A stretch of DNA of 59,911 bases from Patescibacteria group bacterium (GTDB taxonomy: Bacteria; Patescibacteriota; Minisyncoccia; Minisyncoccales; CAZWNE01): positions 1 to 59,911 of the forward strand of contig JBBTTI010000029.1 of NCBI GenBank assembly GCA_038078735.1, given 5' to 3'. Of the stretch, positions 47,226 through 50,305 are shown one piece after another. A model generated the notes under the pieces. That model was not told the DNA's origin, did no database searches, and saw only the letters and a program-made list of their open reading frames with translations. Position numbers and translations under genes: made by a program. The first letter of the stretch is position 1, and each line of letters starts with the position of its first letter.

Positions 47226-47315
47226 TGGCGGTGGGGGTGAGATTCGAACTCACGAAGAGATTGCTCCCTTAATGGTTTTCGAAACCATCGCTTTCGGCCA
47301 CTCAGCCACCCCACC
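47226..47315 (-). tRNA. tRNA-Ser (anticodon CGA), CCA encoded
   Basis: Hand fold: acceptor GGTGGGG/CCCCACC. Anticodon stem ATGGT/ACCAT with loop TTCGAAA. Long variable arm. T-loop GTGAG-TTCGAAT-CTCAC. 3' end GCCA. Confidence 0.9.
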
Positions 47316-47318
47316 ATT

Positions 47319-47633
47319 TTATTTGCCGTGTCTTGCTTTTTCTACTTTTCGTAATTGGTAAACCAATTTGTTAAAAGCCAAATCAAATGCCTCTATCAAA
47401 TTATGGCTGACCTCCTCTGATTCAAAATTATTTTTAGCTATTTCTAATCCTAAACGAACGGCAAAAATATCATGATGCTTGTGGTATTTGGCGTTGACCA
47501 CAAATTTTGCCAAGGCTATATTGCCATGCTGAAGCAAACGGGTCAAACGATCCAATTTTTTCCCGACCAAATGTTTTTCTAATTCTTCTTGACCAGTTTT
47601 ATTAACTTCCTGAAAATAAAAACGTATATTCAT
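47319..47633 (-). CDS. hpf: ribosome hibernation/HPF (RaiA)-family protein, short form
   Basis: About 104 aa. Pattern MNIRFY...ELEKHLVGKKLDRL...FAVRLGLEI...EAFDLAFNKLVYQLRK fits the sigma54-modulation/S30AE fold. Confidence 0.6.
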   Translation of the reverse strand: MNIRFYFQEVNKTGQEELEKHLVGKKLDRLTRLLQHGNIALAKFVVNAKYHKHHDIFAVRLGLEIAKNNFESEEVSHNLIEAFDLAFNKLVYQLRKVEKARHGK

Positions 47634-47643
47634 ATTTATAATT

Positions 47644-47970
47644 TTAACCGAAGACTAATACTTTGTCCGAACTCTCGACCATTTTAAGTAAATCGGACAT
47701 CGTGGAAACGGGACAAACCTTGCTTTCTTCCTTGCCTCGCACCTTCAAACAAGTACCGCAGGCGTAAATTTCGCCTTTCAATTTTTTGAACTCCGCTACC
47801 TTTTTTGAAATGTCGAAATTATTGCTGTCGGGGATAGTATCAAGCTCTGACCCTTCGTTCATCAAAAAAATTTCTACTTGATGACCGGCTTTAAGCGCGG
47901 TAATCCCCAAGCGGAACGTATTCCAGACGTGCTCCGGTTTATTTGACTGCAAGATAATACCAAGCTTCAT
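47644..47970 (-). CDS. DsrE/DsrF-like family protein
   Basis: 108 aa. MKLGIILQSNKPE...IFLMNEGSEL...IYACGTCLKVRG...KVLVFG. Confidence 0.65.
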   Translation of the reverse strand: MKLGIILQSNKPEHVWNTFRLGITALKAGHQVEIFLMNEGSELDTIPDSNNFDISKKVAEFKKLKGEIYACGTCLKVRGKEESKVCPVSTMSDLLKMVESSDKVLVFG

Positions 47971-47971
47971 G

Positions 47972-48059
47972 CGGAGGAGGTGGGACTCGAACCCACAAAC
48001 CGCTTTTTACACGGTTACAGGTTAGCAACCTGCTGCCCAACCAATTAGGCGACTCCTCC
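47972..48059 (-). tRNA. tRNA-Ser (anticodon GCT), no encoded CCA
   Basis: Acceptor GGAGGAG/CTCCTCC. Anticodon loop TTGCTAA. Long variable arm AACCG...CGGTT. T-loop TTCGAGT. The discriminator G is at 47972. Confidence 0.9.
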
Positions 48060-48068
48060 AATAATCTT

Positions 48069-48097
48069 ATTCTACCCGATAAAAACTATCTCGTCAA
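48069..48097 (-). promoter_or_regulatory. promoter of the tRNA-Ser(GCT)-led operon
   Basis: Minus strand: TTGACG (48097-48092), 17 nt, TAGAAT (48074-48069), 9 nt, tRNA 5' end. Confidence 0.6.
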
Positions 48098-48126
48098 TTG
48101 AAAATTAAGCGATTTTGTGATAAATT
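48098..48126 (+). promoter_or_regulatory. promoter of the tRNA-Arg/recG unit
   Basis: TTGAAA (48098-48103), 17 nt ending in tgtga, TAAATT (48121-48126), 10 nt, tRNA 5' end. Its -35 abuts the divergent -35. Confidence 0.6.
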
Positions 48127-48136
48127 TAAACATATT

Positions 48137-48209
48137 GCGCCCGTAGTTTAGTGGATAAAGCGCTGGGTTGCGGACCCAGAGAACGCAGGTTCGAATCCTG
48201 CCGGGCGCA
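48137..48209 (+). tRNA. tRNA-Arg (anticodon GCG), no encoded CCA
   Basis: Acceptor GCGCCCG/CGGGCGC. Anticodon stem CTGGG/CCCAG with loop TTGCGGA. T-loop GCAGG-TTCGAAT-CCTGC. Discriminator A at 48209. Confidence 0.85.
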
Positions 48210-48214
48210 CTTCT

Positions 48215-50305
48215 ATGGATCTCCAAACGCCAATTGAACAAATTTCTCGAGTGGGACCCGCCTATCAAAAAAGATTAAAAAATCTGGGGATACAAACCGT
48301 CGGGGATCTTCTGTTCCATTTTCCTCACCGCTATGAAGATTTTTCAAATTTAATTCCTATTTCTCAAACTGAAGAAGGTGGACCGTTTTCCGTCCAAGGA
48401 AAAATTGCCGACATAAAAATGTTCAGGGCTTTTAGAAGAAAAATGATGCTGACCCAAGCAACCATTGAAGATGAAACCGGCAAAATAAAAGCTCTCTGGT
48501 TTAACCAGCCGTATCTGGTAAACACTTTGAAAAAAGGAACCTTAGTTTGTTTGGCCGGGAAAGTAAAAGGAAAAAAAAGCTCAAAATATTTCTCTTCACC
48601 GGCATACGAGAAGATTGACCAAACTACGAACTATAAACTACCAACTACAAACTTAACCCACACGGGTCGGTTGGTGCCGATTTATCCGGAAACCGAAGGT
48701 CTCTCCTCAAAATGGTTAAGATTTATCGTAAAACCTCTGCTCTCACAACAAAAAAATATCCCCGAATCTTTGCCCGAAAATATAATAAAAAAATATGGCT
48801 TTTTGCCGATTAGAAAAGCTATTCAACAAATACACTTTCCCGATTCTTTTAAAGAGGCTGAATTGGCGAGAAAAAGATTCGCCTTTGAAGAACTGTTCAA
48901 TCTGGCTATTTTTGTTTTGCGGGAAAGATTAAAATTAGCCAAAGAAAAAGCTAAGGCCATACCTATAAACTTAGACTTGATGAAAGAATTTACCGCTAAT
49001 CTTCCGTTTAAATTAACCGATGCCCAGAAAAAATCGGTTTGGCAAATTTTAAAAGATATGGAAAAACCGAGGCCGATGAACCGGCTTTTGGAAGGAGACG
49101 TCGGTTCGGGCAAAACAGTTGTTGCCGCTATGGCTGCCCTGAATGTAGTGAAAAACGGCCAGCAAGTTGCTTTCTTGGCGCCAACAGAGATTCTCGCCAA
49201 TCAGCATTTTCAAAAGCTTTCTGAACTTTTAAAAAACTTTAATCTGAAAATCGGCCTTTTGGCCGGCCGCAAAAAAACCCTTCGACAGGCTCAGGGCGAG
49301 TCTCAATTTGATATTTTAATCGGAACCCATGCTTTGCTTCAAGATAAAGTAAAATTCGAAAAATTGGCGTTAGTGATTATTGACGAGCAGCACAGATTCG
49401 GAACAGAACAAAGAGCTAAGCTTTTCCGCCAAAAAGACTTCATCCCCCATTTGCTTTCAATGACAGCTACTCCCATACCCAGAACATTGTCTTTAACAGT
49501 CTATGGCGATTTGGATTTGTCGGTTATAGACGAATTGCCAAAAGGTAGAAAAAAAATAATTACCAAAATAATCCGACCGAAAGATAAAAAAGCAACTTAT
49601 GAATTTATAAGGCAGCAGGTTAAAGAAGGAAGACAGGCTTTTGCCATCTGCCCTCGTATTGAGCCGCCTAAAGCCACCCCGGAACAATTGCTCGATGCGA
49701 GAAGCTTGTCATGGATGGACGTCAAAGCGGTCAAGCAAGAATATGAAAAACTTTCAAAAGAAATATTCCCCGATTTGAGAATCGGCATGCTCCACGGAAA
49801 AATGAAGTCTCAAGAAAAAGAAAACGCAATGCAAGAATTCAAAGAAAAAATAATAGATGTTCTTGTTTCAACGTCAGTGGTTGAAGTGGGAGTGGATATT
49901 CCCAACGCCTCGGTGATGATGATTGAAGGTTCAGAAAAATTCGGTTTAGCCCAGCTTCACCAGTTCCGCGGCCGGGTGGGCAGGGCCGAACACCAGTCTT
50001 ATTGTTTTTTATTCGTTGATACGCCGGGTGTAATTTATAACAGAAGATTAAAAGCTTTAATCACTTGCGAAAACGGTTTTGAACTGGCGGAAAAAGATTT
50101 GCAAATCAGAGGCCCCGGCGATTTTACCGGCCAGCGGCAATGGGGCATCCCCGATCTGGCTATGGCTTCTTTAAGCGATTCTGTTTTAGTTTCCAAAGCC
50201 CGCAACGAAGCTAAGGAGATCCTGACCGAAGATCCGGAATTAAAAAAATACCCCGAGCTTTTGCAAAGAGCAGAACAATTCAAAACCAAAATCCACTTGG
50301 AATAA
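48215..50305 (+). CDS. recG: ATP-dependent DNA helicase RecG
   Basis: Wedge/OB N-domain. Motif I GDVGSGKT. DEQHRFG. Motif VI QLHQFRGRVGR. TRG-like C-terminus. Confidence 0.95.
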   Translation: MDLQTPIEQISRVGPAYQKRLKNLGIQTVGDLLFHFPHRYEDFSNLIPISQTEEGGPFSVQGKIADIKMFRAFRRKMMLTQATIEDETGKIKALWFNQPYLVNTLKKGTLVCLAGKVKGKKSSKYFSSPAYEKIDQTTNYKLPTTNLTHTGRLVPIYPETEGLSSKWLRFIVKPLLSQQKNIPESLPENIIKKYGFLPIRKAIQQIHFPDSFKEAELARKRFAFEELFNLAIFVLRERLKLAKEKAKAIPINLDLMKEFTANLPFKLTDAQKKSVWQILKDMEKPRPMNRLLEGDVGSGKTVVAAMAALNVVKNGQQVAFLAPTEILANQHFQKLSELLKNFNLKIGLLAGRKKTLRQAQGESQFDILIGTHALLQDKVKFEKLALVIIDEQHRFGTEQRAKLFRQKDFIPHLLSMTATPIPRTLSLTVYGDLDLSVIDELPKGRKKIITKIIRPKDKKATYEFIRQQVKEGRQAFAICPRIEPPKATPEQLLDARSLSWMDVKAVKQEYEKLSKEIFPDLRIGMLHGKMKSQEKENAMQEFKEKIIDVLVSTSVVEVGVDIPNASVMMIEGSEKFGLAQLHQFRGRVGRAEHQSYCFLFVDTPGVIYNRRLKALITCENGFELAEKDLQIRGPGDFTGQRQWGIPDLAMASLSDSVLVSKARNEAKEILTEDPELKKYPELLQRAEQFKTKIHLE
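49278..49300. repeat. 23-nt element shared with comF (44941-44964)
   Basis: cccttcgacaggctcagggcgag. Read here as TLRQAQGE. Confidence 0.5.

Follow-up and report, generated by a model that had tools for sequence, protein, structure and literature searches.

tRNA genes abutting start codons and the possible origin of leaderless messages in a patescibacterial genome

Mitochondrial transcripts are reportedly punctuated by tRNAs and give leaderless mRNAs (the Ojala-Montoya-Attardi model). Classical tRNA-mRNA operons include thrU-tyrU-glyT-thrT-tufB of E. coli and the RNase P-dependent secG-leuU, and in E. coli the endonuclease MazF cuts just upstream of the AUG and leaves leaderless mRNAs. Leaderless expression is also described for the genomes placed in group C by GeneMarkS-2, the Actinobacteria and Deinococcus-Thermus (PMC6028130, PMC4007540), and loss of the anti-Shine-Dalgarno (anti-SD) sequence has been published for a subgroup of the Parcubacteria (Tsurumaki et al. 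2022, PMC9297842).

The stretch analysed here, hereafter the window, comprises positions 1 to 59,911 of the forward strand of contig JBBTTI010000029.1 from a Patescibacteria group bacterium (GCA_038078735.1). As in mitochondrial punctuation, protein genes are directly flanked by tRNAs on both sides, so that excision would set the mRNA ends; the 5′ leaders would be 0 to a few nt long, Shine-Dalgarno (SD)/anti-SD pairing is absent and the tRNAs lack an encoded CCA. Abutment of the mitochondrial type, at 0 to a few nt, was found on both the 5′ and the 3′ sides of tRNAs (1, 5 and 3 nt in the window). Unlike a mitochondrion, the organism is a bacterial cell that has about 800 ORFs and numerous promoters; only about a quarter of its tRNAs punctuate, RNase Z (the counterpart of ELAC2) is not detectable, and for most other genes a promoter appears to supply the leaderless 5′ end. 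With the classical tRNA-mRNA operons the locus shares a probable co-transcription and separation by processing, but those operons have spacers with an SD-bearing leader, CCA-encoding tRNAs and cutting by RNase E or RNase P. As with the mRNAs made by MazF, the 5′-terminal AUG would come from processing and not from transcription initiation; MazF, however, is a stress-induced toxin of debated significance that cuts at ACA sites, and not a part of constitutive tRNA maturation.

The group C genomes (PMC6028130, PMC4007540) have a Pribnow box 6-8 nt before the start codon in a large share of their first genes, and a −10 box at this distance was likewise found before first-gene starts here. Those genomes keep SD sites at their other genes, whereas neither SD enrichment nor an anti-SD was found in the present genome. 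The main text of neither article mentions 5′ ends made by tRNAs. The 16S rRNA ends described below fit those of the anti-SD-less Parcubacteria, in which the CCTCC(T) tail is lost (PMC9297842). In the available part of that article the mode of initiation after anti-SD loss is not stated, the word 'leader' occurs 0 times, and neither the leaderless promoter signature nor tRNA abutment is described.

Gene order and spacing around the tRNAs

Table 1. Features of the tRNA-flanked region of the window.
Feature	Coordinates	Strand	Remarks
21-nt palindrome GTTAGACGCTAAGCGTCTAAC	47178..47198	.	some 30 nt past tRNA-Ser(CGA)
tRNA-Ser(CGA)	47229..47315	-	59.2 bits; ARAGORN reaches 47226 since CCA is encoded (47228-47226)
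HPF / ribosome-hibernation-like gene (hpf), 104 aa	47319..47633	-	PF02482, 29.9 bits vs cut-off 23.7
DsrE/DsrF-like gene, 108 aa	47644..47970	-	PF02635, 41.4 bits vs 22.7, full length
tRNA-Ser(GCT)	47972..48059	-	57.2 bits; without encoded CCA
Promoter-like TTGACG(48097-48092)-17-TAGAAT(48074-48069)	48069..48097	-	10/12 match
Promoter-like TTGAAA(48098-48103)-17-TAAATT(48121-48126)	48098..48126	+	9/12 match; TG upstream
tRNA-Arg(GCG)	48137..48209	+	72 bits; without encoded CCA
recG, 696 aa	48215..50305	+	RecG_wedge, DEAD, Helicase_C, RecG_dom3_C

The three tRNAs of the region (Table 1) were called alike by ARAGORN and Rfam; the ends 47972 and 48209 given in the preliminary description are the discriminator bases, and ARAGORN ends one base further. 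The junction of tRNA-Ser(GCT) with the DsrE-like gene reads ...CTCCTCC-G-C-ATG, with 1 nt between the discriminator G73 and the ATG, and that of tRNA-Arg(GCG) with recG reads ...CGGGCGC-A-CTTCT-ATG, with 5 nt between A73 and the ATG. At both junctions there is no space for an SD. Further along the minus strand, hpf starts 10 nt after the DsrE stop and tRNA-Ser(CGA) 3 nt after the hpf stop; an RNase P cut at the 5′ end of this tRNA would give the DsrE-hpf mRNA its 3′ end. The palindrome GTTAGACGCTAAGCGTCTAAC, which has 13 copies in this genome and 0 in the relatives G031 and G032, may be an end mark of the minus-strand unit.

Residues 1-107 of the DsrE-like protein aligned to positions 1-116 of the Pfam DsrE profile, and the gene is assigned to the PF02635 family by this match. 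The match of hpf to PF02482 (HPF / S30AE) was weak but passed the gathering score, and the Pfam domains of recG (wedge, DEAD/Helicase_C core and C-terminal domain) scored 89.7, 91.6, 68.4 and 44.5 bits. The −35 hexamers of the two promoter-like elements are adjacent and lie back-to-back; on the minus strand the −10 TAGAAT ends 9 nt before the 5′ end of tRNA-Ser(GCT), and on the plus strand TAAATT ends 10 nt before that of tRNA-Arg(GCG). This arrangement is conserved: a similar back-to-back AGTCAA|TTGA.. core was present in about 9/12 of the readable tRNA-Ser/tRNA-Arg spacers of relatives. On the tRNA-Ser side of these spacers the −35 TTGACT/TTGACG and the −10 TAAAAT/TAGAAT were conserved, and similar TGnTAAATT/TGnTAATTT elements were found on the tRNA-Arg side. 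The promoters, the spacings and the lack of an encoded CCA in the two leading tRNAs were confirmed as first described.

The abutment is not limited to the window. Abutment was counted where an ORF of 70 aa or more opens with an ATG within 12 nt of a tRNA discriminator; by this measure 12 of the 47 tRNAs of this genome abut a gene start, at 0-10 nt, against 3.3% of 20,000 random positions (binomial p = 2.5e-8). All but one of the 12 ORFs had a Pfam match at E <= 0.01 (11/12), the exception being a 121-aa membrane-like ORF. On the 5′ side, a CDS stop was located at most 16 nt from the 5′ end of the next same-strand tRNA in 15/24 cases, in line with the likeness to mitochondrial punctuation proposed earlier. 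Abutment was also found in G031 (5/46 tRNAs, p = 0.008) and G032 (6/47, p = 0.0016), and at 7/57 tRNAs in single loci of 28 further genomes of the order, where 6 of the 7 were one recurring tRNA-Val(GAC) junction; these relatives are not independent samples.

Tight spacing is not particular to tRNAs. Same-strand gaps of at most 12 nt made up 272/567 (48%) of the CDS-CDS gaps and 10/29 (34%) of the tRNA-CDS gaps, and the closeness as such needs no cause beyond compaction. The predicted shortage of tRNA-CDS gaps of 13-39 nt was only modestly supported: 4/74 such gaps against 217/1562 for CDS-CDS in three genomes pooled (Fisher p = 0.036), 3 of the 4 belonging to G032 alone, with gene sets that are crude, greedy longest-ORF calls and not gene-finder output.

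Start codons and conservation of the junctions

The abutting ATGs are supported as true starts by profile and homologue alignments. The Pfam profiles for DsrE, Obg and GIY-YIG matched from residues 1-3 and RecG_wedge from residue 7 of recG; recG alignments started at residue 1 or 2 in 30/30 loci of the order, and the alignments of 80/80 DsrE homologues reached back to residue 1 of the query. It is hardly credible that these starts are wrong and that the real ones lie further downstream behind ordinary leaders, the reading that would have undone the preliminary description. In-frame GTG and TTG codons do follow, such as a GTG 36 nt inside recG, but this GTG falls within the conserved N-terminal motif, and the profiles of the four families named above begin at residues 1-7.

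The recG junction recurs in the order. In 17/30 recG loci (own locus counted) the ATG of the gene follows the end of a tRNA at 0-12 nt, and this tRNA is tRNA-Arg(GCG) in 16 loci and tRNA-Leu(TAG) in 1. The gaps were 0 nt (2 loci), 1 nt (7), 2 nt (2), 4 nt (2), 5 nt (2), 7 nt (1) and 12 nt (1), the commonest junction being exactly N73-N-ATG (7/17 loci) and most often N73-C-ATG. On the other side of the spacer, a congener (G001) has tRNA-Ser(GCT)-CT-ATG-DsrE, and in another (G002) DsrE is missing and hpf abuts tRNA-Ser(GCT) at 0 nt, followed by tRNA-Ser(TGA). Within the genus, the first gene, DsrE or hpf, appears always to be located at the tRNA end.

Elsewhere the DsrE-like gene is found in a different setting. 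Among 80 loci from other CPR MAGs (78-93% aa identity), only 1 showed tRNA abutment, and 38 had a −10 hexamer (matching at least 5/6) ending at −7, with the upstream consensus TAAAAT-AAnTTT-ATG. Judged from these loci, the DsrE-like gene would have two ways to an mRNA 5′ end, a promoter or a tRNA.

Translation initiation and tRNA maturation

The 16S rRNA of this genome (G000, contig C28) ends in ...GGATCATTTAATTTT and those of G031 and G032 in ...GGATCACTACATTTT; the anti-SD CCUCC was absent from the 3′ ends in all three, the rRNA genes being without CCTCC. SD-like motifs of at least 4 nt preceded 9.9% of 534 ATG genes against 7.8% of random positions, and enrichment of such motifs was not found upstream of these genes; a small excess of strong motifs was seen for SD-like 6-mers (21/534 genes, 3.9%, against 0.4%). 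Neither the anti-SD nor SDs 5-10 nt upstream of the starts, the marks of SD-led initiation, thus characterise this genome, and many internal operon genes are also without SD. Throughout the genome the sequence before the starts is rich in A/T, and A makes up 45-58% of the bases from −11 to −3.

A signal of another kind was found before the start codons. The last base of a −10-like hexamer peaks at −7 (58/527 genes; most positions farther upstream have 2-14), and TAnnnT ending at −10 to −6 was present in 46.5% of the 284 first genes, defined as those with 40 nt or more of free space before them, against a background of 18.9%. A −10 box that stops 7 nt short of the ATG indicates leaderless transcription, and leaderless expression in this genome, of the kind earlier suggested for recG and the DsrE-like gene, has in these boxes an independent indication. 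With a leader of 5-12 nt a message is not leaderless in the strict sense, which weighs against the leaderless reading; in E. coli, added 5′ nucleotides weaken leaderless initiation.

CCA is encoded in 6/47 tRNAs and missing from 41/47, so that 3′ ends must be precisely cut or trimmed. A PolyA_pol/CCA-adding domain (124.6 bits) was found, and CCA is predicted to be added after transcription. RNase P RNA (110.5 bits, gathering score 100) and rnpA (72.7 bits) are present, and RNase P is predicted to act at the tRNA 5′ ends. RNase Z, which had been put forward as the 3′ nuclease, was not supported: the best TIGR02651 match in this genome, 99% complete by marker estimate, was RNase J, with 21.7 bits where the cut-off is 292.95, and 0/61 genomes of the order and 0/121 of the phylum had a match over the curated cut-off. 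Of cca and rnz, then, only the former was recognised, and the presumed 3′ cutting nuclease would not be a recognisable RNase Z. RNase Y (606.8 bits), RNase J (541.9 bits) and two RNase_PH domains of PNPase type were found, and RNase E/G and the RNB exonuclease had no recognisable match in this genome. CPR genomes are reported, in the part of PMC12641178 available, to retain RNase J, RNase III and PNPase.

Origin of the message 5′ ends

We consider it moderately probable that the excision of tRNAs in this CPR bacterium leaves mRNAs with no leader or hardly any. The sequence of events may be depicted as follows: The organism, of the CPR/Patescibacteria type and with a small genome, has lost the anti-SD tail of its 16S rRNA and would begin translation mainly at AUGs at or very near the mRNA 5′ end. 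For many genes this end would be the transcription start, given a −10 box that stops 7 nt short of the ATG, and for genes after a tRNA it would be made by tRNA maturation. Transcription from the back-to-back promoters would begin 3-5 nt before tRNA-Ser(GCT) and tRNA-Arg(GCG) and read through both tRNAs into DsrE-hpf and recG. RNase P would trim the tRNA 5′ ends and, at tRNA-Ser(CGA), also remove the 3′ end of the DsrE-hpf message, while an endonuclease would cut at or just past the tRNA 3′ end (N73 or C74), leaving the tRNA to be completed by the CCA-adding enzyme. The released mRNAs would have leaders of 0-5 nt (0-10 nt genome-wide) and be translated as leaderless messages. The co-transcription, the cut, its position and the translation of the cut product are inferred.

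A simpler view is that tRNAs are packed like any other gene and that initiation is independent of both SD and 5′ end, at A/U-rich unstructured starts as in Bacteroidota, on precursor or processed RNA alike, which would make the abutment mechanistically meaningless. This view draws on the equally tight CDS-CDS junctions, the A-rich upstream regions, the weak shortage of mid-range gaps and the numerous internal operon genes that lack an SD and must still start somehow. It nevertheless seems unlikely: from ribosome geometry, a tRNA fold 0-5 nt from the AUG would fill the upstream space of the ribosome, there is no upstream ORF for reinitiation, and single-copy tRNAs must be cut at the junction anyway because so few encode CCA. 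The prevalence of exactly N73-N-ATG at recG also speaks against it, as do the DsrE loci elsewhere whose promoter places the AUG at the very 5′ end. The objection from the folded tRNA applies equally to an either-or transcript, translated first as a tRNA-mRNA chimera and turned into tRNA only after mRNA decay, by 3′-to-5′ trimming with PNPase. The failure to find RNase Z, RNase E/G and an RNB nuclease, the PNPase-type domains and the enzymes reported kept in CPR genomes would suit such a transcript. The missing nucleases also count against excision: if 3′ maturation were purely exonucleolytic (PNPase), the downstream mRNA would be consumed and not released. We regard the either-or transcript as quite improbable, since the genome has two endonucleases, RNase Y and RNase J, and since essential tRNAs with a single gene copy, tRNA-Trp for one, would become available only as mRNA decays.

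Promoters inside the tRNA genes would make the mRNA a primary transcript and leave no role for tRNA processing. Candidate boxes exist: behind tRNA-Arg(CCG) there is a CATAAT that ends at −7, and behind tRNA-Arg(TCT) a CACAAT that ends at −5, both partly formed by the tRNA 3′ end, and for hpf a TAAAAT hexamer inside the DsrE stop region, ending 8 nt before its ATG. TAnnnT ending at −11 to −5 was, however, present at only 2/12 abutting genes of this genome, 0/5 of G031 and 0/6 of G032, in contrast to its frequency before genes with free upstream space. Both window junctions are among those without it, the region being a G+C-rich acceptor stem, and an origin in internal promoters is accordingly very improbable. 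The excision of tRNAs from a common transcript, as outlined above, is the reading we favour, and the earlier interpretation is in this way partly supported. The finding describes a small bacterial genome without the usual ribosome-binding signal in which the start of a message is probably made, much as in mitochondria, by the cutting of a tRNA.

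tRNA-gene junctions around recG

The window is contig C29 of a genome assembly that comprises 706,169 bp in 43 contigs with 38.5% G+C and was rated 99% complete. ARAGORN and Rfam agreed on four tRNAs in the window, three of which are relevant to the junctions. Read from the sequence, a single C separates the discriminator of tRNA-Ser(GCT) from the ATG of the DsrE-like gene, 10 nt lie between the stop codon of this gene and the hpf ATG, and 3 nt between the hpf stop codon and the 5′ end of tRNA-Ser(CGA). On the other strand, the discriminator of tRNA-Arg(GCG) and the recG ATG are separated by 5 nt (CTTCT). 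Both leading tRNAs, tRNA-Ser(GCT) and tRNA-Arg(GCG), lack an encoded CCA. The promoter scan revealed the promoter-like sites TTGACG-17-TAGAAT on the minus strand and TTGAAA-17-TAAATT, with a TG, on the plus strand; their −10 hexamers end 9 and 10 nt 5′ of the tRNA, respectively, and their −35 hexamers touch at 48097/48098. The coordinates of the tRNAs, ORFs, gaps and adjacent −35 hexamers in the preliminary description all hold by these analyses, and the back-to-back promoters that it proposed gained comparative support. The spacer between the two leading tRNAs was readable in 12 relatives, where it is 64-149 nt long, and in about 9 of the 12 it retains the back-to-back −35 core AGTCAA/TTGA.. 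and matching −10 boxes.

Features of the window locus and of other contigs of the same genome
Feature	Sequence	Position	Strand	Basis or remark
tRNA-Ser(CGA)	window	47229-47315	-	ARAGORN + Rfam
HPF-like gene (hpf)	window	47319-47633	-	ORF + Pfam
DsrE-like gene	window	47644-47970	-	ORF + Pfam
tRNA-Ser(GCT)	window	47972-48059	-	ARAGORN + Rfam
tRNA-Arg(GCG)	window	48137-48209	+	ARAGORN + Rfam
recG	window	48215-50305	+	ORF + Pfam
ORF with GGAGGT before internal ATG	window	46654-46986	-	
Palindrome (21 nt)	window	47178-47198		
249-aa ORF	window	50382-51131	-	no Pfam match
tRNA-Glu(TTC)	window	51173-51247	-	
rRNA-operon end with methyltransferase gene	C28	4184-6462	-	
UPF0173/TM0207-like hydrolase	C1	22062-22988		L005:934-1860
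UPF0173/TM0207-like hydrolase	C4	27184-27825		L007:1267-1908

The possibility that wrong start codons create the junctions was excluded, because Pfam matches and homologue alignments reach back to the N-terminal residues and confirm the starts. Residues 1-107 of the DsrE-like protein match profile positions 1-116, and its homologues from named CPR (Patescibacteria) MAGs align from query residue 1 in 80 of 80 cases. The RecG_wedge match begins at residue 7 of RecG, the alignments of its homologues start at query residue 1 or 2 in 30 of 30 loci of the order, and upstream of the recG ATG the window holds no further start codon in the same frame.

The DsrE-like protein shares 78-93% amino acid identity with those in MAGs whose labels place them in many different CPR lineages, including Saccharibacteria, Peregrinibacteria, and the Microgenomates and Parcubacteria groups. 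The gene is therefore evidently mobile, and is uninformative on the host lineage beyond CPR. Its distribution points to a recent horizontal spread of this 108-aa gene, usually with its own predicted leaderless promoter: a −10 hexamer with at least 5/6 match ends exactly at −7 in 38 of 80 loci (45 of 80 at a match of at least 4/6), the upstream consensus is TAAAAT-AAnTTT-ATG, and a tRNA abuts at only 1 of the 80 loci. With a predicted promoter at other loci and a tRNA here, the AUG of the same gene would be set at a 5′ end either way.

Another tRNA of the window displayed a different arrangement. Downstream of tRNA-Glu(TTC), an ORF of 249 aa begins after about 40 nt, and the spacer between them contains TGGTATAAT as well as a TAGAAT whose end lies 8 nt 5′ of the ATG. 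This is an alternative layout, in which a gene with its own predicted leaderless-type promoter follows the tRNA. The 21-nt palindrome GTTAGACGCYNRGCGTCTAAC in the window was found in 13 copies in the genome, the others being on contigs C1 (6), C9 (2), C24 (1), C28 (2) and C40 (1), and in none in the two complete relatives described below (G031 and G032). Twice it is located just 3′ of a tRNA, at tRNA-Ser(CGA) in the window and at tRNA-Lys(TTT) on C40. It may be a small mobile repeat, or else serve as an operator or terminator-like element.

Abutment of tRNAs and start codons across the genome and the order

In the whole genome, an ORF of at least 70 aa with an ATG start begins 0-10 nt after the discriminator of 12 of the 47 tRNAs, whereas 3.3% of 20,000 random positions passed the same test (binomial p = 2.5e-8). 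The gaps are 0 nt at tRNA-Trp, 1 nt at tRNA-Ser(GCT), 2 nt at tRNA-Ser(TGA) and tRNA-Val(TAC), 3 nt at tRNA-Ile(GAT) and tRNA-Gly(CCC), 5 nt at tRNA-Arg(GCG), 7 nt at tRNA-Arg(TCG), 8 nt at tRNA-Arg(TCT) and tRNA-Ala(CGC) (CCA + 5), 9 nt at tRNA-Arg(CCG) and 10 nt at tRNA-Val(CAC) (CCA + 7). Ten of these ORFs lie outside the window. Nine have Pfam matches: Obg (profile match from residue 3), a GIY-YIG protein (from residue 1), a GNAT acetyltransferase, an FkbM methyltransferase, an acylphosphatase, an EamA/SMR transporter, a pilin/TIG protein, an AlbA_2/bPH protein and a thioredoxin (weak match). The tenth is a membrane-like ORF of 121 aa without Pfam match. The 5′ sides of the tRNAs were also tight, with a CDS stop codon at most 16 nt from the next same-strand tRNA in 15 of 24 cases; a clear example is the order promoter, tRNA-Tyr, tRNA-Thr, rpmG, tRNA-Trp, ATG-ORF. 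The observation at recG was thus confirmed, and as judged from the sequence the pattern is much broader than the locus first described.

On contig C28, the 16S 3′ end is followed by tRNA-Ile(GAT), 3 nt, a gene for an FkbM-type methyltransferase of 204 aa and later by tRNA-Ala(TGC). From this order, a protein gene appears to be located in the rRNA-operon spacer and to abut the tRNA there.

Two complete genomes from other families of the order, G031 and G032, were analysed whole, and 5 of 46 (p = 0.008) and 6 of 47 (p = 0.0016) tRNAs, respectively, abut a gene. Among single loci from 28 further genomes of the order, 7 of 57 usable tRNAs abut; these are not independent, because 6 of the 7 represent one tRNA-Val(GAC) junction. 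At recG, the ATG follows the end of a tRNA by 0-12 nt in 17 of 30 loci of the order, and this tRNA is tRNA-Arg(GCG) in 16 and tRNA-Leu(TAG) in one. The gap is 0 nt in 2 loci, 1 nt in 7, 2, 4 and 5 nt in 2 each, and 7 and 12 nt in 1 each, the commonest junction being ...GGGCA-C-ATG. In the remaining 13 loci, a tRNA is located 40-59 nt upstream in 2 and none within 400 nt in 11. One congener (G001) has tRNA-Ser(GCT)-CT-ATG-DsrE; another (G002) has no DsrE-like gene, and hpf begins 0 nt after tRNA-Ser(GCT), directly followed by tRNA-Ser(TGA). Within the genus, the tRNA end is, on these sequences, adjoined by whichever gene is first.

A scan of 61 genomes with the T-arm pattern GTTCRANNC-N{12,30}-ATG gave mostly non-tRNA noise among the matches listed, and was replaced by the whole-genome analysis of G031, G032 and G166. 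The last of these, a genome of 602,646 bp with 51.8% G+C, represents a different class of the phylum. CCA is encoded in 44 of its 50 tRNAs, and Shine-Dalgarno (SD) motifs are used to some extent (19.8% vs 9.7% at random positions). Abutment was found at 1 of its 50 tRNAs only, and the tRNA-to-ATG gaps clustered at 22-23 nt. This one contrast genome suggests that the abutment trait goes with the lineage devoid of encoded CCA and anti-SD. The 16S gene of G166 (contig C1, minus strand, about 349256 of the reverse complement) diverges from the conserved 3′ region immediately past AAGTCGTAACAA. Insertions are known in CPR rRNA genes, and this departure is as expected for them.

Translation initiation and tRNA 3′ processing

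The Rfam SSU model had no match in the MAG, and its 16S 3′ end was located on C28 by a short conserved 16S motif. This end reads ...GTGGATCATTTAATTTT and those of G031 and G032 ...GGATCACTACATTTT; the anti-SD CCTCC is absent from all three. The ends fit the anti-SD-less Parcubacteria subgroup described by Tsurumaki et al. (PMC9297842), which reports the loss and gives no initiation mechanism. SD-like motifs of at least 4 nt preceded 9.9% of the 534 ATG-first genes compared with 7.8% of random positions, with a small excess of SD-like 6-mers (3.9%, 21/534 genes, vs 0.4%). Among the few strong 6-mers in this anti-SD-less genome is a GGAGGT in the window, which precedes an internal ATG (MAEKN...) of the ORF at 46654-46986 by about 13 nt.

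The −10-like hexamers peaked with their last base at −7 (58 of 527 genes), and ended at −8 and −9 in 26 genes each and at most positions further upstream in 2-14. Where 40 nt or more were free upstream (284 genes), 46.5% had a TAnnnT ending at −10 to −6, compared with a background of 18.9%. The same −10 and SD pattern was found in G031 and G032. The leaderless −10 signature is shared with GeneMarkS-2 group C, as defined in PMC6028130, but the accompanying SD class of that group is lacking here.

RNase P RNA, rnpA, RNase Y, RNase J and two PNPase-like RNase_PH domains at contig ends were found in the genome, as was a CCA-adding enzyme domain, which the preliminary description had named for checking. 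RNase E/G and RNB exonucleases were not found in it. Neither was RNase Z, to which that description had assigned the 3′ cut: the best match (21.7 bits) was RNase J, and no genome reached the RNase Z cut-off in surveys of the order (61 genomes) and of the phylum (121 genomes). RNase Z-like ORFs of 250-280 aa (65-106 bits) occur in a minority of the genomes surveyed. According to PMC12641178, CPR retain RNase J, RNase III and PNPase.

A full CCA is encoded in 6 of the 47 tRNAs, and likewise in only 6 each in G031 and G032. C74, the first base after the discriminator, is encoded as C in 38/47, 41/46 and 37/47 tRNAs of the three genomes, respectively, a hint that this base is used or retained during 3′ processing or CCA completion. 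A nuclease other than RNase Z may act after C74. Such a cut would leave exactly a 5′-AUG at the commonest junction and would explain the recurrent N73-C-ATG.

Candidates for this nuclease are RNase Y, RNase J and a small TM0207/UPF0173-like metallo-beta-lactamase (MBL) hydrolase; at E <= 1e-5, this hydrolase was detected in 51 of the 61 members of the order surveyed. The hydrolases match only the PDB chains 6hrg, 3x2z and 1vjn, whose deposited names carry no specific function, and as an RNase Z substitute the hydrolase is a lead only. Two copies were found in this 0.7-Mb genome without RNase Z, and in the 308-aa copy the profile match is permuted, with the C-terminal half first and then the N-terminal half.

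Origin of the mRNA 5′ ends

Internal promoters for the abutting genes are unlikely: TAnnnT ending at −11 to −5 was found at only 2 of 12 abutting genes in this genome, 0 of 5 in G031 and 0 of 6 in G032, and at neither junction of the window. Compaction alone does explain the closeness of tRNAs and genes as such, gaps of at most 12 nt being present in 48% of CDS-CDS and 34% of tRNA-CDS pairs. The scarcity of 13-39 nt gaps predicted under processing is modest, with 4 of 74 tRNA-CDS compared with 217 of 1562 CDS-CDS pairs (p = 0.036 for the three genomes pooled, 0.06 for this genome alone and 0.10 for G031) and three exceptions in G032. A bimodal distribution of tRNA-CDS gaps is suggestive only.

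Processing at the junctions is favoured because the tRNAs need cutting there in any case, because no upstream ORF could hand over a ribosome, because initiation on the precursor would be difficult with a folded tRNA beside the AUG, and because the organism elsewhere places AUGs at 5′ ends. Operon-embedded tRNAs would then serve as processing signals, whose excision would yield mRNAs with the AUG at or near the 5′ end, and an AUG would owe its place at a 5′ end to such excision in some genes and to a promoter 7 nt upstream in others. That tRNA excision generates leaderless or near-leaderless mRNAs is, on balance, probable. The tRNA-punctuated leaderless expression of the preliminary description is retained, without RNase Z as the nuclease. 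It is more tentatively proposed that this anti-SD-less CPR order has converged on mitochondrial expression, with excision of operon tRNAs by another nuclease, 5′ or near-5′ AUGs and leaderless translation.

On sequence and comparative evidence, the arrangement resembles mitochondrial tRNA punctuation, coupled to predicted leaderless translation, in an anti-SD-less bacterial lineage. Neither leaderless expression in CPR/Patescibacteria nor the generation of leaderless mRNAs from tRNAs in bacteria turned up in literature searches, with most subscription journals and supplements outside their scope. The searches also covered PMC4007540, PMC4681348 and PMC12641261; PMC4633059, PMC6851277 and PMC7441243 contained the searched terms in the reference lists only.

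The proposed placement of start codons at mRNA 5′ ends offers a concrete and testable answer to how translation is initiated after loss of the anti-SD in CPR. If true, bacteria and mitochondria evolved tRNA punctuation with leaderless translation independently of each other, and a phylum largely without RNase Z should possess another tRNA 3′ endonuclease. Gene callers that assume an SD or a post-tRNA spacer would tend to mis-set starts in such genomes, and insertion next to a tRNA would be a simple expression route for promoterless genes.
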